Below are positions 35,782 through 49,545 of a stretch of DNA of 64,000 nucleotides, one piece after another (positions within the stretch are counted from its first letter, which is position 1; every line of letters starts with the position of its first letter). The DNA is taken from contig OZ252243.1 in assembly GCA_965249555.1 (NCBI GenBank), forward strand, positions 288,001 to 352,000, read 5' to 3'. The translations under genes were made by a program, and so were the position numbers. This DNA comes from Nitrosopumilus sp. GTDB taxonomy: Archaea; Thermoproteota; Nitrososphaeria; Nitrososphaerales; Nitrosopumilaceae. Below the pieces are notes generated by a model, which was not told the DNA's origin, searched no databases, and saw only the letters and a program-made list of their open reading frames with translations.

Positions 35782-36808
35782 GTTAGGCCTTTTTGACCAA
35801 TATCTTTTCTACAATATTTGTGAGACCATGAAATTTTTTCAGCTGCTGCATATGCATTTGTAATTGCAGAATCCAAAGAGTCACCTAATGCTGTAACTCC
35901 CAAAACACGAATCCCCCATTTGAGAGGATTTTTTCATCAATCTTTTTTGTTCCAGCATGAAAAACATATGCTTCATCAGAAAGAGTCAAACCAGGAGATC
36001 TCTTCGTTTGTTGGATAGGATTCGGGATATCCCTTGGATGCTAAAACAACACACACTGCAGATTGATTTTTACAAGAGGTTGAAGGCATTGATGATAATT
36101 TTCCATCAACGCTTGCAACAAAATAATCATACAAGTCAAAGTTCATTCTCATAGTAATTGGCTGACATTCAGGATCACCCTTGACTTGTTGCCATAGGAA
36201 TGGCAATCTCACCATCAGAAAGTGCAATGTATGAAGCCTCAATCCCATCTATTCTTTCTTCAATGATGATGCGATTTCCAGCATCGCCAAATGTCTTTTT
36301 GACTAGAATTGTCTGAATTGCAGAAAATGCTTCATCGTTACTGTTGCAAACAATAACACCCTTTCCTGCAGCAAGACCATCAGCCTTCACTGCAACATTG
36401 TAATCAAGTGATAAAACATAGTCTTTAGCTTTTTGAGCATCATCAAATATTTCAAATTGTGCTGAAGGGATATCATTTCGTTTCATGAAATTCTTAGCCC
36501 AAATCTTACTTGATTCAAGCTGTGCGGCTTGCTGAGAGGGACCAAAAACTTTGAGATTGAGTTGGTTAAATTTATCAACAATTCCTGCAGCCAAAGGAGC
36601 CTACAGGTTCAACTACAGTAAAGCAATTATTTTTTTGAGCAAAATCAGATAATCCATCTAAATCATCCACGCTTATTGGAACATTATTTTCAGTGCCACC
36701 ATTTCCAGGAGCAGTAAAAACAGTATCAACTTTAGGGCTTTGAGATAGTTTCCATGACAATGCATGTTCTTGCCCACCAGAACCAACTACCAGAACATTT
36801 ACCAACAA
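35773..36808 (-). pseudogene. purD: Phosphoribosylamine-glycine ligase, multiply frameshifted with an internal deletion
   Basis: GSGGQEHAL, KADGLAAGKGV, GDPECQ, SKGYP and FHAGT in different frames; the DHKR..GPNTGGMG segment is missing. Confidence 0.92.
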
Positions 36809-43775: not shown

Positions 43776-43870
43776 GGACCGGTCGTCTAGTTTGGTTTGG
43801 ATGACGCACTCACACTGCGTAAGGAGAAATCCCGCAAAGGTCGTGGGTTCAAATCCCATCCGGTCCACCA
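43776..43870 (+). tRNA. tRNA-Val(CAC) with a 17-nt intron at about position 44/45 (43822-43838)
   Basis: Acceptor stem GGACCGG/CCGGTCC, anticodon arm ACGCA-CTCACAC-TGCGT, T arm GTGGG-TTCAAAT-CCCAT, bulge-helix-bulge motif, encoded CCA. Confidence 0.93.
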
Positions 43871-43905
43871 CTTTATTGGTTCTTAAATAAAATTCACAGG
43901 TAACT

Positions 43906-46043
43906 ATGACATTGGATGATTTTGATGAACCCTTGAACGTCTTTTTTGATGCTTTGGAAAATCGTACAACAAGGGATCATTATCAAAGATATCTAAAGTA
44001 TTTCTTCAAATTCTTGAAATTAGATGGAGATTCATTAGAAAGTCATTGCAGATCTAAACAATGCAATAAATGATATCAAAAATCAATTCAAAATTAATCC
44101 TATGAATGAAGATAATTATTATCCTAGAGACCTTGCAGATAAACTAAATCCTGAACAAAGAGAATATTTCAGATATGGTATAATTCTTGGAAGAAGATAC
44201 CCAGGATTAAATTTTCATCCTGATTCAAAAATTTATTCTCTAACAGGTGATAAAAAAATATTTTATTGTTGGTGTAATACTAGGTAGAAAATTTCCTAAC
44301 AAGAATTTTAGGTATTTATAATGAATGGGTATGTGAGACTTGGGCATAATGATTTACAAAAAAAACCAAAACTTTTCTCTAACAACAAAGCATTCTTTTC
44401 GCAATCCTTGGATTCTCACTTCCAATTACACAGTTACAATACACTGCCAACTGATACACCAACACGCAAATCAGCACGAATGATTGTACGTTCTCAAATC
44501 CTTTCACCAGAACTGTTCTAATGCTAAACGTATCCTTGATTATCTCAGAGTGTTTCAATTGATATTTTTCTCTGAGAATAATTTCTGACCAACTGCTGAA
44601 TTGTAAAACCCTGTCAACTTTGTTCTGTCTGGTGTGGCGTAGAATAGTATTTTTTGACTGGACAGATTAATCTCATGGTATTATTCTTAGTTGACTCGTA
44701 TAGTTTAGAATCATCATATGCCGGATCACACCATATACTATTCATCAATCCAGAAAGTGACTCTCAATTTTTCATATGGCTTGCTATCATAGACATTTGC
44801 AGTAGTTACACATGGCAGATAATGGAACAACTAGTCTTTCCTGTGCTACAACTCATGTGTAGTTTGTATCCATACGCCCAACCCTTTGATTTGGAGAATC
44901 CCCACTTGACATTTGTGTCAATTCCTGCAATTGGTAAGTGATTCTTTTTGATGTCCGATTTGTGCCATACTGGACCTGAAGCTTTTAGCATTGAATTATC
45001 AACTGCTGCTGATTTACTATTCACCAATCCTTCTGAGACAAACAAATCTTCTACAGTGTTAATAATTTCATTGATTGGTAAGCATTGAAATCTTCTGTCA
45101 ATTGTCCTTCTGTCAGGAATTTAATCTGCAAACCTTGCGTAATTTGTCATTGGTACATTTGATTGAGAGAAAATAATGCAGTGTGTTGTTACTTGGAATT
45201 CTCATCCATGACTTTACGATGAATAATTGAACCATTAGAACAGTTGAATGGACATATGGTCGTCCTCGTCTCATTGCATTCTCATACAGATATAGTATTC
45301 CAACCAGATACAAAATACCAATAAGAAATGACTTACATAGAATCTTGCTAGGGATTTTTATTTGTTTTGTAATCATTACAATGAACAAAACATGATGAGA
45401 TCCTTTGCTTTTTCTATTTGAATAATTTGAGAAATCGGTTAAAAATGAGAATTGATTATGCCCATGTCTCATTGTAAATGAAAATTCATGTGTTTTACGA
45501 GATGAGTTTGATGTTTCAAAATCAAGTAAAGGATTAGCAACAGTTCCAAAATAGCTAAAAAGTACAGGTTTGAAGAGTTTAATTGAACGTGCTCTTTTTG
45601 CTGAAGGAATAGGAAAGCCTCTTTCAAAAGGTCAGAAAAGACACGAATTCAAAACAGACCATAGTTTTAGAAAATTCTTTAAGACAATTGTTGAACGAAA
45701 TATGAAGTCATTACACGTAGAAATACTAATGGGTCATTCTACTGGATTAGCCAACAACTACTATAGAATTCCAGAAAAAGAACTACTAGAAGAATATACC
45801 AAAGCTATTCAAGATCTCAGCATCTATGAATCCACACCACAAGAAGATAAAATACAGTATTTGGAAAGAGAGATTCGAGAAATGAAAATGAACTTGGCTG
45901 ATCTTATGATAGATTATGGAAAAGAACGTTCTGGAGAATTGATTTCTAAACATCCCAAACTATTGAAAGGCATGAAATTTTCTACTGAATCAGATGCAGT
46001 AATAATCAAAGACTTTTTAGATGATTCTGACATATTATACTGA
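43906..46043 (+). pseudogene. Tyrosine recombinase/integrase, split by an IS and deletion
   Basis: N-terminal MTLDDFDEPLNVFFDALENRTTRDHYQRYLKYFF near 43906; C-terminal HSFRKFF..LMGH..YY catalytic box in 45570-46043; in-frame stop near 45552. Confidence 0.85.
44334..45471 (-). mobile_element. IS element with a DDE transposase pseudogene (about 44379-45376), IS5/IS982-like
   Basis: 17-bp terminal inverted repeats TGAGAC(T/A)TGGGCATAAT; fragments RRGRPY, DRRTIDRR, AVDNSML and GWAYGYKLH in broken frames. Confidence 0.9.
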
Positions 46044-46236
46044 TTTTGGCAAACAAAGTAATCATCGATAATGACATTCAGATTTAGTATAAAATTGGCA
46101 TAATTGGGTTTTACTGTTGACATATAGGTATGTAGGTATGTGGTAATATAGTACCAATTATATGTTAATTTTATGCATAATTTCTTTAATAATTGGTTAG
46201 ATTATAATTACTAATTATTCAAAATACCATAATATT

Positions 46237-46263
46237 TATATACTATCTTATATATAGTATATA
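46237..46263. promoter_or_regulatory. Palindromic operator candidate over the TATA region of the HTH operon
   Basis: TATATACTAT-N7-ATAGTATATA, ending 14 nt upstream of ATG 46278. Confidence 0.55.
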
Positions 46264-46277
46264 TAGAGAAAAATTAG

Positions 46278-46499
46278 ATGGTAAAAATAGAAGATCAAAA
46301 CATTAAAAAAGAGTTGCAAATCATAATTGGGATATTGCTTAATCAATCAAAGATTCAAGAAAAAAGTCTAGGTGAGAAAATAAGGTATCTTGCATTAATG
46401 AAATACGAAAATCAGGAAATTGCAGATATGTTAGGAACAACATACAATATGGTGGCAAAAGAAAAGTCAAAAGCAAAAAAGGGGAAAAAAGATGAGTGA
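46278..46499 (+). CDS. Small HTH protein 1
   Basis: KSLGEKIRYL..YENQEIADMLGTTYNMV HTH pattern. Confidence 0.8.
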   Translation: MVKIEDQNIKKELQIIIGILLNQSKIQEKSLGEKIRYLALMKYENQEIADMLGTTYNMVAKEKSKAKKGKKDE

Positions 46500-46722
46500 A
46501 GACATTTTAAAAGTAATTGATAGAAGATTAGAAACCATAATCAATCTAATTGCAATTGATGTAATTAAAGACAAATCTCTTAATGAACAGATAGATATTC
46601 TTTCTAGTGCACGTTTAACAGTTAATGAAATAGCAACTATACTAAACAAGTCACCAAATAACATCAGTGTTAGATTACACTTAAAAAAAATCAAAAAAGA
46701 AAGAGGTAAAAAAATTGAATGA
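46492..46722 (+). CDS. Small HTH protein 2
   Basis: KSLNEQIDILS..LTVNEIATILNKSPNNI; 8-nt overlap with gene 1. Confidence 0.8.
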   Translation: MSEDILKVIDRRLETIINLIAIDVIKDKSLNEQIDILSSARLTVNEIATILNKSPNNISVRLHLKKIKKERGKKIE

Positions 46723-46915
46723 AAAGCAATTCAAAATATTAACTGAAAAATTAGATTTTATTTCTAAAATATTATTACTTAATATTGTAAAAGATCTAGA
46801 ATTCAACAAGCAAGTTACACAATTATCTAATTTAGGACTAAGAGAAACAGATATTGTAAAAATATTGAATTCGACCAGAAACAAAGTTCATTTAATTATG
46901 AGGAAAATTAAATGA
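46715..46915 (+). CDS. Small HTH protein 3
   Basis: KQVTQLSNLGLRETDIVKILNSTRNKV; 8-nt overlap, TTG start. Confidence 0.75.
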   Translation: MNEKQFKILTEKLDFISKILLLNIVKDLEFNKQVTQLSNLGLRETDIVKILNSTRNKVHLIMRKIK

Positions 46916-47175
46916 TTGAAAAAAAAGAAATACCAGATACAGAAATAATTAAGAGATTATTGATAGTACAATTAGTTAGGAATGAGATATCAATTAGAGA
47001 CATTGTAAAAATTACGTGGATTGGAACTAAAAAATTGTATGAATTTTTACCAAAAAATATAGGAAATGGAGAACAAATTCCAGTTAAACGTGGCATGAGA
47101 TTCAAACATTCTTTTGATTTAAGTGATTTTGGTTTGCTACCTACATCCAGTAAAAAGGAGACAAAACATGGGTGA
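46912..47175 (+). CDS. Small HTH protein 4
   Basis: IKRLLIVQL..ISIRDIVKITWIGTKKLYEFLPKN; ATGA overlap. Confidence 0.75.
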   Translation: MIEKKEIPDTEIIKRLLIVQLVRNEISIRDIVKITWIGTKKLYEFLPKNIGNGEQIPVKRGMRFKHSFDLSDFGLLPTSSKKETKHG

Positions 47176-47344
47176 CAAGATACAGGTTGAACTGGAATCT
47201 ATAAAAAAATTATTGATTTTAAATTTGATTTCTCAAGGAATACCTCATGCTGCTGTTGCAAAAGCAGCTGGCATGAGTACTAAAACACTTTACAACTTCA
47301 TTCCAAAAAATCTTTCTAAAATATCTCGTAATGGTGATGAATAA
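47168..47344 (+). CDS. Small HTH protein 5
   Basis: IKKLLILNLISQGIPHAAVAKAAGMSTKTLYNFIPKN; AAGGAG SD before ATG 47168. Confidence 0.8.
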   Translation: MGDKIQVELESIKKLLILNLISQGIPHAAVAKAAGMSTKTLYNFIPKNLSKISRNGDE

Positions 47345-47346
47345 AC

Positions 47347-47718
47347 ATGGGTGACATGTTAAATCGAGATGTAAGAGAAATTAAGAATCGTATTGATGGA
47401 ATCGACAAATCAATGGATCTACTTCTTCGTGCAAATCGAAAAGAAATAACTGATGATATACTAGTTTTCTTTGGAAAATCAAAGAATCGTGTGAACGTGT
47501 TCTTGGCAGTTGATGGTAGAATCACAGTCAATCAAATTGTAAATAAGTTAAAACCTATGAAACAACCTAATGTGTCTACAAGAATATCTGAACTGTTTGA
47601 TGAAGACCTGATTTATGTAAAAAAAACAACGAATAAAGGCAAAGTTTATGAAAAAACAAAAAAGGTAAAAATTTTGAATTTAGAAAAAATTCTTAGGAAT
47701 ATATTTAAAATAAAATGA
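47347..47718 (+). CDS. Winged-HTH protein with N-terminal coiled coil
   Basis: VFLAVDG..TVNQIV..MKQPNVSTRISELFDEDLI..GKVY ArsR/MarR-like pattern. Confidence 0.8.
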   Translation: MGDMLNRDVREIKNRIDGIDKSMDLLLRANRKEITDDILVFFGKSKNRVNVFLAVDGRITVNQIVNKLKPMKQPNVSTRISELFDEDLIYVKKTTNKGKVYEKTKKVKILNLEKILRNIFKIK

Positions 47719-48248
47719 CTTTTGAAGAACTTAAGGCTGCAATTCAATCACGAATATGGGATATTTTTAATCAAAATAGCTGGACTGAATTAGATGATTT
47801 TTCATTAAGACTTTCTGAAAAAATTACAAAAAAAATGATTAGTTCTCCTTCTAAAACCAATATTCAAAAAATCATAGATTCCACTAGAACAAATTTTTTT
47901 ACTGTAAACAAGATTAAAAAAATTTCTCTTGCAAAGTCTCTGGAAAACGATTTACGTGAAATCCATGATTTGTATAAACCGAGTAAAAGAATATTTAAGA
48001 AAAAATCTGCATCTTCCTCTAAATCTAAACCTCGAAATGATTTCTCAGATGATGCAAAAATCCAAGCACTGAGAAAACAAGATCATCGTTGTGCTAAATG
48101 TGGACGAATTTTAGGGGTTGTGGATTATGATCATGAAGATGGAGACAGATCCAATGATGATCCATCTAATTGTAGGGCAATATGCCCATACTGTCATGCT
48201 GTTGTTTCTAGACGTAGACAAAGTCTTAAGAGAATGAAAATGAATTGA
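47715..48248 (+). CDS. HNH endonuclease with an unknown N-terminal domain
   Basis: QDHRCAKCG..DYDHEDGDRSNDDPSNCRAICPYCH. Confidence 0.88.
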   Translation: MTFEELKAAIQSRIWDIFNQNSWTELDDFSLRLSEKITKKMISSPSKTNIQKIIDSTRTNFFTVNKIKKISLAKSLENDLREIHDLYKPSKRIFKKKSASSSKSKPRNDFSDDAKIQALRKQDHRCAKCGRILGVVDYDHEDGDRSNDDPSNCRAICPYCHAVVSRRRQSLKRMKMN

Positions 48249-48663
48249 ACCGTCGATTTTTTGGAATCTGCTTTTTGAACCTATATCAGCACGGAAACCA
48301 TCCGGTCCACTCCATTTTAGTTACTAAATTAGTTTCAGAATTGCTTTAAGGAAATCCCATTGTGTTTGGTCATAGTCAAAAATACTCCTCCTACTATTGT
48401 TATTTCAGTGAACTCTTGATTTCCTATGTTCATCAATTAAGAGTCTTACTTTATCTAAAAATCACATGTTATCTAAAAGTATGAATAATTGTTATATAGT
48501 ATTTTGACGTATATGATATAACGAGAAGCCTTTGTTCTGCGTCGTAGAATAATAGGTCTGGAAAACACCTCATGTTAAAAAAACGTCCTAGAATCATGTG
48601 TTTTCCATGTATCTCGTTGTTCTAAAAGGAAACAATTTAGAATAGTCCATAATAGGAACGAAT

Positions 48664-49482
48664 ATGGATTCCAAAGACGTTATAGATAATGTAAATGCGT
48701 TATTGAAACTCGGGGTGGGGGATCCATACAGACTAGAGCACATCAAACAATCATACATCCTAAACAGCACTATTTGGAAGAGTGATGACAAATACCTAGA
48801 ACAACTAAAAGAGAAATACCTAGTCAGACATCGCATAGACCAACCAAGCATAGAACCAGAAATTGATGAAAAGACAGAAAGTGAGTCTGAAGATAAGGAC
48901 ATGATTCATTGCTGGAAATGTGGAAAAAAGAGTCCAACAAGAGCTAATTTTTGCATGATTTGTGGCTCTTCTATTTTTGAAGTTGGTGAAGAACCTAAAA
49001 CAGCTGATGTGCAAATGGCATCTACTCGATCAAAAAATCAGACAAAAAGGATTAGATTAAAAATTCCCATTTTAATTGGCATTCCTGTTTTAATTTTAAT
49101 AATAATTGGTGGTGCATATAGCCAAGGCTTTTGGGACAACTCGCTAGAAAGACAGGGTACAGGGGATTCAACAAGTGGGGTGATGGTATCTACTGAAGAC
49201 AATTCAAAATGTGGTCCAGGAACAGTCTTTGATCCGGATGCTAATGCATGTGTTTTAGGAAGTGCAATAGGGTCTAAAGATTCAACAAGTGGGGCAAGTA
49301 CTGAAGACAATTCAAAATGTGGTCCAGGAACAGTCTTTGATCCGGATGCTAATGCATGTGTTTTAGGAAGTGCGATAGAGTCTAAAGATTCAACAAGTGG
49401 GGCAAGTACTGAAGACAATTCAAAATGTGGTCCAGGAACAGTCTTTGATCCTGATGCTAATGCATGTGTTTTAGATAAATGA
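48664..49482 (+). CDS. Membrane protein with a zinc ribbon and three C-terminal Cys-pair repeats
   Basis: CWKCG..FCMICG, a transmembrane helix, then repeated CGPGTVFDPDANAC. Confidence 0.8.
   Translation: MDSKDVIDNVNALLKLGVGDPYRLEHIKQSYILNSTIWKSDDKYLEQLKEKYLVRHRIDQPSIEPEIDEKTESESEDKDMIHCWKCGKKSPTRANFCMICGSSIFEVGEEPKTADVQMASTRSKNQTKRIRLKIPILIGIPVLILIIIGGAYSQGFWDNSLERQGTGDSTSGVMVSTEDNSKCGPGTVFDPDANACVLGSAIGSKDSTSGASTEDNSKCGPGTVFDPDANACVLGSAIESKDSTSGASTEDNSKCGPGTVFDPDANACVLDK
49191..49475 (+). repeat. 108-bp tandem repeat (about 2.6 units, 36 aa each)
   Basis: Units start at 49191, 49299 and 49407 and are nearly identical. Confidence 0.95.
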
Positions 49483-49545
49483 AAACAGGAATCACAAGAG
49501 ATTTCAAATTAGTTAGTTAAAATTGGATAAAGTTGACAAAAATTT

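Follow-up and report, generated by a model that had tools for sequence, protein, structure and literature searches.

The seven genes g1 to g7 found at 46278-48248 in a 64,000-nucleotide (nt) stretch of Nitrosopumilus sp. DNA (contig OZ252243.1 of GenBank assembly GCA_965249555.1, positions 288,001 to 352,000 of the forward strand; hereafter the window) form an operon borne by a small island at the 3' end of a tRNA-Val gene, and represent one copy of a cassette that recurs in archaeal genomes. Between loci, the small paralogous genes of this cassette keep their order, its g6-family gene is strictly adjacent to the gene coding for the N-terminal domain of g7, and its effectors are polymorphic. 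The unit would belong to a cassette family of Nitrososphaeria and Bathyarchaeia assembled from three distinct parts. First come small, position-specific helix-turn-helix (HTH) proteins (g1-g3, family A; g4-g5, family B). Second is a conserved winged HTH (wHTH) protein (g6). The third part is likely an effector composed of a helical N-terminal domain of ~90 amino acids (aa), hereafter the N-domain, and of an exchangeable toxic domain, which is HNH in g7. Since a conserved DNA-binding core, an adaptor domain and polymorphic toxic domains carried by mobile DNA of low G+C content (GC) are the standard signature of conflict modules, the cassette may be a mobile module of this kind, involved either in defence with abortive infection, or in addiction and stabilisation, a reading for and against which we find the balance about even.

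The initial annotation described seven co-oriented genes with overlaps of 4 or 8 nt and a single 2-nt gap, and the coordinates of the open reading frames (ORFs) agree. All seven lie on the (+) strand; in order, their junctions overlap by 8, 8, 4 and 8 nt, leave a gap of 2 nt, and overlap by 4 nt, g5 being read from the ATG at 47168. This start is preferred to the upstream GTG at 47123, and relatives start at the equivalent position. The description of an intact operon within a decayed tRNA-Val island also stands as far as tested, given a 13-nt att repeat, an integrase gene split by a decayed insertion sequence (IS), and ratios of nonsynonymous to synonymous substitution rates (dN/dS) of 0.15-0.38 relative to the copy in locus L034 in five of the six gene pairs compared, where g3 yielded no ratio owing to a saturated dS and dS approaches saturation overall. 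These are real genes, subject to purifying selection. The archaeal DNA of the window has a GC of ~34%; over 46-48 kb, GC is 24-29%, vs 33-37% in the flanks, and the cassette is foreign DNA by composition. Contigs of runs X1 and X2, which may be the source sample, match 45444-48700 without differences, and three X4 contigs from another study are identical over 46727-47441, 47440-47674 and 47813-48583, the last one spanning attR. Neither a circular junction nor an empty site was seen in any contig, a negative that carries no weight with contigs.

Table 1. Features of the tRNA-Val island and of the seven-gene operon (positions in the window).
Feature	Position	Strand	Basis
tRNA-Val(CAC) gene with intron, integration target; attL at 43857-43869 in its 3' end	43776..43870	+	ARAGORN
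Tyrosine integrase pseudogene, fragmented N-terminal part	43906..44333	+	Position, and C-terminal half after the IS
Decayed IS (DDE-type by eye) inside the integrase gene	44334..45471	-	Terminal inverted repeats, transposase in pieces
Tyrosine integrase, C-terminal half, one in-frame stop	45471..46043	+	tblastn, jackhmmer
Candidate operator/promoter: perfect 10-nt inverted repeat, 7-nt spacer	46237-46246 / 46254-46263	.	Repeat search
g1, 73 aa, family A small HTH, g1 clade	46278..46499	+	ORF, paralogy, tree
g2, 76 aa, family A small HTH, g2 clade	46492..46722	+	ORF, paralogy, AF2 model
g3, 66 aa, family A small HTH	46715..46915	+	ORF, paralogy, tree
g4, 87 aa, family B HTH, wing-like C-terminal tail	46912..47175	+	ORF, paralogy
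g5, 58 aa, family B minimal HTH	47168..47344	+	ORF, paralogy
g6, 123 aa: N-terminal helix, ArsR/MarR-like winged HTH, C-terminal helix	47347..47718	+	Homologues, context
g7, 177 aa: helical N-domain 1-~90, basic disordered linker 93-103, HNH ~110-170	47715..48248	+	AF2 model, alignment
attR, 13-nt copy of the tRNA-Val 3' end, 51 nt past the g7 stop	48299..48311	.	Direct repeat

The data point to the wHTH protein g6 and the N-domain of g7 as the conserved coupling of the cassette, as judged from gene order in 11 loci out of 11. In a hidden Markov model (HMM) search of all ORFs in all fetched loci, the N-domain was found in one gene per locus, always directly downstream of a g6-family gene. Besides the window, the loci are L031 and L034, two from other families of the phylum (L088 and L089), three metagenomic ones (L093, L095 and L096) and three from metagenome-assembled genomes (MAGs) of Bathyarchaeia with a GC of 48-50% (L149-L151). 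In L089 and the Bathyarchaeia loci, the N-domain is followed by a C-terminal domain other than HNH. A search with the g7 alignment retrieved 54 metagenomic loci, four of which encode a full-length relative of g7; a g6-like gene immediately precedes it in all four, and arrays of small HTH genes are present in the three whose upstream sequence is long enough. The other 50 loci have the HNH domain alone in common, and no arrays.

Homologues of g6 number 34 among 5.8 billion clustered proteins (53-100% identity), including relatives at 57-58% identity in Bathyarchaeia MAGs. Profile matches of g6 itself are sub-threshold, and 5 of the 34 homologues have a precomputed match to PF01022, PF12802, PF12840 or PF13545. 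For g7, 18 homologues of similar length were found (49-98% identity). Its AlphaFold2 (AF2) model consists of the helical N-domain (residues 1-87, pLDDT about 88), then the disordered basic linker, then the HNH domain. That the operon ends in an HNH nuclease, as initially annotated, is borne out by eight PHROG HNH families (2.6e-6 to 7.6e-5) and by ZorE models of PADLOC (7e-7), the PF01844 match remaining under its cut-off (E 0.017). Residues C126, C129, D139, H140, N147, N152, C157, C160 and H161 are invariant in 18/18 sequences (CxxC, DH, N, CPxCH); we take these positions to be the catalytic and zinc residues of HNH enzymes. Foldseek returned no match of g7 to the PDB at E<=1e-3. In a VIA-align comparison of g7 (best Z, 8.1), HRDC domains scored 5.2-7.2 over the N-domain, which falls within the range of any helical bundle, and we assign no fold on this basis. 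The closest HNH-only relatives of g7 in the genus, in loci L005 (genome G021) and L004 (G050), have a signal/transmembrane (TM) N-terminus in place of the adaptor domain, and one of the two adjoins an integrase-like gene.

Beyond these loci, the N-domain profile matched 84 proteins at E<=1e-3 among 1.84 billion representative proteins, and the domain is almost always N-terminal. At least 60 residues follow it in 63 of the 84, and these C-terminal parts fall into groups of 22, 12, 6, 3, 3, 3, 2, 2 and 2 proteins, plus eight singletons. Pfam recognises CHAT in six of the 84 proteins, HNH in four, a nucleotide cyclase in one and HEPN_Swt1 in one; several nuclease-like domains are also joined to the N-domain. 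Because its C-terminal partners vary to such an extent (nine groups and eight singletons, with CHAT, HNH, cyclase and HEPN among them), the N-domain likely acts as a carrier for exchangeable effectors. The group of 12 has its C-terminal domain in common with the "cl4" tails of arrays. Profile searches of the PDB with the C-terminus of the "cl2-long" tails, with the largest N-domain group and with the cl4 group gave nothing significant, nor did hhalign link the cl2-long C-terminus to Ymh. ESM Atlas offered leads for cl2-long (HEPN-type clusters, 0.91-0.93) and for cl4 (unnamed bacterial clusters, 0.97; Mrr_cat, 0.82).

One of the checks proposed in the initial annotation was whether HTH arrays with a wHTH recur with variable effectors, and they do, with tails that differ by locus. 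A family A profile matches 26 of the 401 genomes of the same family (a tally that includes the unpublished G263, G285 and G137), in 6 of its 27 genera and mostly in tandem. Arrays of family A and/or family B genes are present in all 15 of these loci that were fetched, and the 27 small-HTH loci tabulated have 1 to 7 small genes each. The small-HTH family also occurs in other Thermoproteota, including Bathyarchaeia; outside the family of Nitrosopumilus, full-length family A relatives were found in four further genomes of the phylum, the other matches of this phylum-wide search being to the HTH motif of larger regulators only. In L034, the operon recurs with one gene fewer (g6, 3.4e-52; g7, 6.5e-59).

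The gene ending the array varies between loci, and the same g1-g2 "head" is combined with at least four different tails. Tails comprise a TIR_2 protein (3e-20), also matching the PADLOC candidate PDC-S66 (2.5e-46); HEPN_Swt1 proteins in three loci (7e-12, 3e-12 and 1.5e-6), one of which also matches PDC-M34B (3.8e-47); a fusion of a wHTH and Schlafen AlbA_2 (7.9e-17), with HEPN_AbiV (1.7e-22) after it; Hypoth_Ymh proteins (1.9e-10), present in four loci; a DprA-like SLOG protein; a canonical HNH protein (7.5e-12); and two families devoid of Pfam matches that appear nuclease- or HEPN-like by motif and ESM-Atlas leads alone. In L031 (4667-7371), the g6/N-domain pair is followed by the DprA-like SLOG protein (3e-51), then by a weakly PRTase-like protein, a combination reminiscent of nucleotide-centred conflict systems. 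L150 (5270-10532, a Bathyarchaeia MAG) bears two cassettes back to back: the first consists of an array, then g6, then an N-domain/nuclease-like protein, and the array of the second terminates with a wHTH-Schlafen(AlbA_2) protein closely like that of L032 from ammonia oxidisers. Class I aminoacyl-tRNA synthetase genes lie near arrays in four loci and were rejected as a part of the system, being the host Ile/Val/Leu-tRNA synthetases.

The paralogy of genes 1-3 and that of genes 4-5, both claimed in the initial annotation, are upheld by pairwise comparisons (g1/g2, E 4e-5; g2/g3, E 7e-9; g4/g5, E 7e-10). No link between families A and B was detected by hhalign (probability 2%); their HMMs cross-match weakly in relatives. 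HTH matches of the operon proteins in Pfam are all under the curated cut-offs. The AF2 model of g2, built from a 39-sequence alignment (pLDDT 92.9), has helices at residues 3-25, 30-39, 44-51 and 55-75, that is, a long, exposed N-terminal helix and then a three-helix HTH. Searched with Foldseek, this model had no PDB match at E<=1e-3, and AsnC/MarR/ArsR/LuxR-type HTH proteins occupied the top rows at E 0.45 or more. Designed repeat proteins topped the PDB profile search for family A and were taken as spurious, real HTH regulators appearing from E 0.002. In family B, g4 aligns to a 59-aa relative (E 5e-17) and, tail included, to a 119-aa winged relative (E 9e-11); its wing-like tail is common to relatives of 119-153 aa.

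In a maximum-likelihood tree of 40 family A proteins, the g1 clade (support 99/99) is composed of genes that open their operon in six cases out of six. All five members of the g2 clade directly follow a family A gene, with a g1-clade gene in every locus, and a separate clade contains four genes, each immediately upstream of a Hypoth_Ymh/HEPN gene. Because the tree resolves old clades with fixed positions, the arrays are not recent duplications. The order of paralogues is conserved, a point on which the initial annotation had made its proposal depend. These old, position-specific clades are circumstantial evidence that fits non-redundant roles of the paralogues.

According to the initial annotation, such roles would be those of subunits: g1-g5, with or without g6, would join through their N-terminal helices into a heteromeric multi-HTH complex reading a composite DNA site, and recruit or license the HNH nuclease. 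In HNH-class homing endonucleases, multiple small HTH-like modules that bind DNA are indeed strung together. Translational coupling at five of the six junctions, distinct orthologous clades in a fixed order that suit non-redundant subunits, and the exposed N-terminal helix of the g2 model are consistent with such a complex. The initial annotation placed an amphipathic helix before each HTH; the g2 model has a helix at that place, but in family B the supposed N-terminal helix may be helix 1 of the HTH itself, as judged by eye from the alignment. Moreover, the number and make-up of small genes vary so widely between loci that they are hard to square with one fixed complex, and the same arrays precede RNases, TIR proteins and proteases that need no DNA address. 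We thus regard the heteromeric complex as improbable.

A candidate regulatory site lies immediately upstream of g1. No start codon is present at position 46237, with which the initial annotation began the operon; the inverted repeat listed in Table 1 starts there. Located 15-41 nt ahead of the g1 ATG, this repeat overlaps a TATA-like stretch rich in A+T, and an in-frame TAG immediately precedes the ATG. An 18-nt promoter stretch that includes the left arm of the repeat is identical upstream of the g1-clade gene of L035, despite diverged proteins. We infer that the repeat is a candidate operator combined with the promoter of a leaderless transcript. A scan for sigma-70 promoters and terminators performed no better than on shuffled sequences, its model being bacterial and not applicable to archaea. 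In addition, a ~25-nt motif, TTATGC.TA..TTCTTTAA-like, lies at 46170-46200, ~80-100 nt upstream of the first array gene. The window and L034 have this motif in common, L042 matches it more loosely, and it may represent a second regulatory site.

None of the seven proteins is covered by a PADLOC-DB v2.0.0 model beyond the HNH domain of g7: g2, g3 and g4 had no match, and g1, g5 and g6 had weak ones (E 0.0015-0.047), including "HEase" for g1 at E 0.0015. As far as tested, the initial impression that this architecture is not a named system therefore persists, and a keyword search of the open-access literature returned no paper describing such HTH arrays. The HNH domain of g7 matches ZorE models of Zorya type II; the match is confined to that domain, and ZorA and ZorB are absent among the seven proteins. 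Tails of related cassettes strongly match the PADLOC candidates PDC-S66 and PDC-M34B, representatives of abortive infection (Abi) or candidate defence genes that act singly or in pairs and have a wHTH-HEPN or TIR architecture (for the HEPN families, see Anantharaman et al., 2013, PMC3710099). Unlike these tails, g6 and g7 of the window do not match; the PADLOC models cover the effector only, and not the arrays, and no PDC-M34A-type match was found in the 10 array proteins scanned.

The closest conceptual match is provided by the effector-associated domain (EAD) systems (Kaur et al., 2020, PMC7159879). In the excerpts of that paper, a small, non-enzymatic, all-helical domain is likewise located N-terminal to many alternative effectors (HNH, restriction endonuclease-like, CHAT/caspase-like, HEPN, cyclase and TM), whose gene lies beside a conserved core gene. 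In contrast to EAD systems as portrayed there, the cassette resides in unicellular archaea, its core is a wHTH protein with an HTH array rather than a nucleoside triphosphatase (NTPase; MoxR-vWA, GTPase or STAND), and its core protein has no second copy of the domain. Pfam recognised no NTPase domain in the seven proteins of the window. Because the core protein lacks a second N-domain copy (one gene per locus in 11 loci), coupling cannot be homotypic in the sense given to EADs in those excerpts. By analogy, the cassette would function in the manner of EAD systems, although it is not one of them.

A classical type II toxin-antitoxin system with redundant antitoxin copies, in which a small HTH protein or g6 would directly neutralise g7, also deserves consideration. 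As in such systems, small DNA-binding genes are translationally coupled to, and overlap, a downstream toxin-type gene on mobile DNA; an HTH gene with its own clade and a Ymh(HEPN) gene make up a two-gene pair in four loci; and the cassette has outlasted the decay of its island, as addiction modules do. Against this interpretation, there are seven genes rather than two, with five to seven ordered DNA-binding genes instead of one antitoxin; the paralogues are old and ordered, not redundant copies; the effector possesses its own adaptor domain and a constant wHTH partner; and the small proteins leave no room for a toxin-binding domain beyond the HTH. We consider a classical toxin-antitoxin system very improbable.

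Reading the cassette as a conflict module, the seven genes would constitute a single transcription unit and the whole cargo of a minimal integrative element. The effector g7 would kill the cell or cut DNA, and g6 would be its DNA-binding partner, coupled via the N-domain; in some other loci, a wHTH is fused directly to the effector domain. The small proteins g1-g5 would provide a regulatory layer, most simply as layered repressors acting at the palindromic promoter and keeping the effector silent until a trigger is perceived. Like these physical interactions, the operator and the trigger, the beneficiary is something we infer: it would be the host in the case of defence, and the element itself in the case of addiction. 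A bolder version, which we put forward tentatively and regard as rather doubtful, is that of a previously undescribed archaeal immune or addiction family of Nitrososphaeria and Bathyarchaeia, in which the wHTH protein would recruit, via a new adaptor, one of at least a dozen interchangeable effectors (HNH, restriction endonuclease-like, CHAT protease, HEPN, cyclase or membrane proteins). The ordered small HTH paralogues would read or self-mark DNA combinatorially and thereby determine when the effector acts, and the cassette would often travel alone on the smallest integrative elements known.

Little is known about the defence repertoire and the mobile elements of ammonia-oxidising archaea, which rank among the most abundant microbes of oceans and soils and, to our knowledge, have no genetic system. 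With its compact size (2 kb) and clear modular logic, the cassette is a candidate system that can be tested in heterologous hosts, and its new adaptor domain is a marker by which effector proteins can be recognised in archaeal metagenomes. If the small HTH set were truly a combinatorial sensor or licensing device, this would be a regulatory design new to known defence and toxin-antitoxin systems.

The island that bears the operon is 4.45 kb long, is bounded by the 13-nt repeat of the tRNA-Val 3' end, and contains an integrase gene, an IS and the seven-gene operon, with no further genes. Its IS accounts for 1.14 kb; the element, ~3.3 kb without it, would have entered the tRNA-Val 3' end and later lost its integrase. 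The C-terminal half of the integrase begins exactly at the end of the IS (45471): residues 196-396 of the 397-aa integrase of L036 align to 45471-46037 (tblastn, E 1e-16), a jackhmmer search matches the family at 1.5e-54, and relatives have PF00589 (E 3e-12). In the N-terminal part, short ORFs (43906-44073 and 44102-44287) are interrupted by stops, and tblastn found no match with intact relatives over 43906-44333. The IS is delimited by terminal inverted repeats of 22 nt (44334-44355 and 45450-45471), and its transposase frame lies in several pieces; a second copy elsewhere in the genome is 94% identical and likewise fragmented. The summed depth of contigs from X1 and X2 over 44334-45471 is ~100x that of the flanks, with many variants, so that this IS family has reached a high copy number in that genome or community.

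A DNA search matched the flanks of the island in 96 of the 101 genomes of the genus. Among the matches listed, homology on the left stops at the tRNA 3' end (window 43865-43898) and resumes on the right at 48379 or later, and the interior (43899-48378) is covered by the genome itself and by the second IS copy alone. Since other genomes hold different inserts at this site, from ~0.9 kb to ~19 kb, the tRNA-Val(CAC) 3' end is an integration hot spot in the genus. Inserts in G007 (L092), G294 (L047), G036 and G073 measure ~1.3, 0.9, 5.5 and 19 kb and are unrelated; to judge from an antisense ORF, another partial copy of the tRNA 3' end seems to close the one of 0.9 kb. The att repeats of the elements in L033, L035 and L036 are just 11-12-nt matches, and are unconvincing.

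An integrase (here a pseudogene), att repeats at a tRNA 3' end and an interior unmatched in relatives of the genus, among the matches listed, are also what characterises cryptic integrated elements (CIEs), e.g., the 2.6-kb NitUzo-E2 (PMC6563490). As described in the excerpts of that paper, CIEs resemble the island in being small, with a tyrosine integrase, a short att repeat at a tRNA 3' end, (w)HTH and hypothetical proteins, no recognisable replication or transfer genes, and IS insertions; att repeats of thaumarchaeal integrated elements have a median of 17 bp and go down to 8 (Krupovic et al., 2019, PMC6563490). Unlike the island, CIEs are presented in these excerpts with no signature genes, small-HTH arrays, g6/N-domain pair or exchangeable effectors. 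The cassette suggests a reason for the make-up of some CIEs, in which there is little besides an integrase and HTH genes.

Such elements lead to the main rival explanation, rather unlikely in our estimation, according to which the operon controls the life cycle of a cryptic integrative plasmid or virus, with the toxic genes as cargo. Under this explanation, repressor, anti-repressor, excisionase and copy control would be the functions of the small HTH proteins, g6 would be a wHTH replication initiator or partition-type DNA binder, and the HNH protein would process the DNA of the element itself by nicking, resolution or packaging. The toxic-looking genes of related loci would be ordinary exclusion or moron cargo that is transcribed along with the repressor. 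In phage lambda, rexAB are transcribed together with the repressor gene cI. An island reduced to an integrase and an operon should have some genes that serve the element itself, the palindrome is located at the promoter, and, apart from an integrase, the elements in L035 and L036 contain little more than a pair of divergent HTH arrays and a single tail gene. Conversely, TIR, HEPN RNase, CHAT protease and cyclase tails have no plausible role in replication or packaging, the operon also exists without a detected integrase (L034 and L095), and purifying selection has acted on it after the death of the integrase. When the seven proteins and the integrase fragments were scanned against Pfam and PHROG, all matches were of HTH or HNH type: neither viral, conjugative or casposon hallmark genes nor replication, packaging or transfer proteins were recognised. 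Ordinary viral early genes, which the initial annotation had weighed against its proposal, find no echo either, as tblastn of g2, g6 and g7 against 50,697 phage and virus records had no match, and two scans of viral contigs, one of them with g6, revealed no relative. Both explanations can hold at once, as they would for a 3.3-kb element whose only cargo is an addiction or exclusion module.

Several observations weigh against the conflict-module interpretation. Of the 16 loci from the same family, 7 contain or adjoin a tyrosine integrase of one family, and the arrays could therefore serve the life cycle of the element. The fetched loci sit outside obvious defence islands; the 10 larger neighbours scanned are mostly ordinary host genes, with one GmrSD protein, five with host-type or non-defence domains, and four without a Pfam family. 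Because none of the small HTH proteins matches a defence model, the term defence relies on guilt by association, and mobile elements also carry effector-type domains as addiction or exclusion genes. Effector calls for the cl4 and cl2-long C-termini and for the largest N-domain group are leads from motifs and language models alone. By hhalign, g6 matches the small HTH families through the HTH motif alone (family A, E 0.0094). Finally, locus counts overstate the number of separate events, as kin genomes are not independent.

Minor features were observed around the island and further away in the window. Beside attR, a 33-codon ORF on the (-) strand (48335-48436) joins the two ends of a membrane protein, of which G007 has an intact 210-aa version (L092, 1730-2362); this host-side gene therefore underwent a large internal deletion. 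At 49191-49514, three tandem 108-nt repeats (98% and 69% identity) in a gene for a 272-aa zinc-ribbon/TM protein match a chitin-binding CBM_14 profile. Upstream, a 138-aa ORF (36175-36594, (-) strand) matches the PurD ATP-grasp domain and is overlapped by a second short ORF, and the gene may be frameshifted. In G036, an HTH gene and a wHTH-effector pair adjoin an IleRS neighbourhood orthologous to that of the window.

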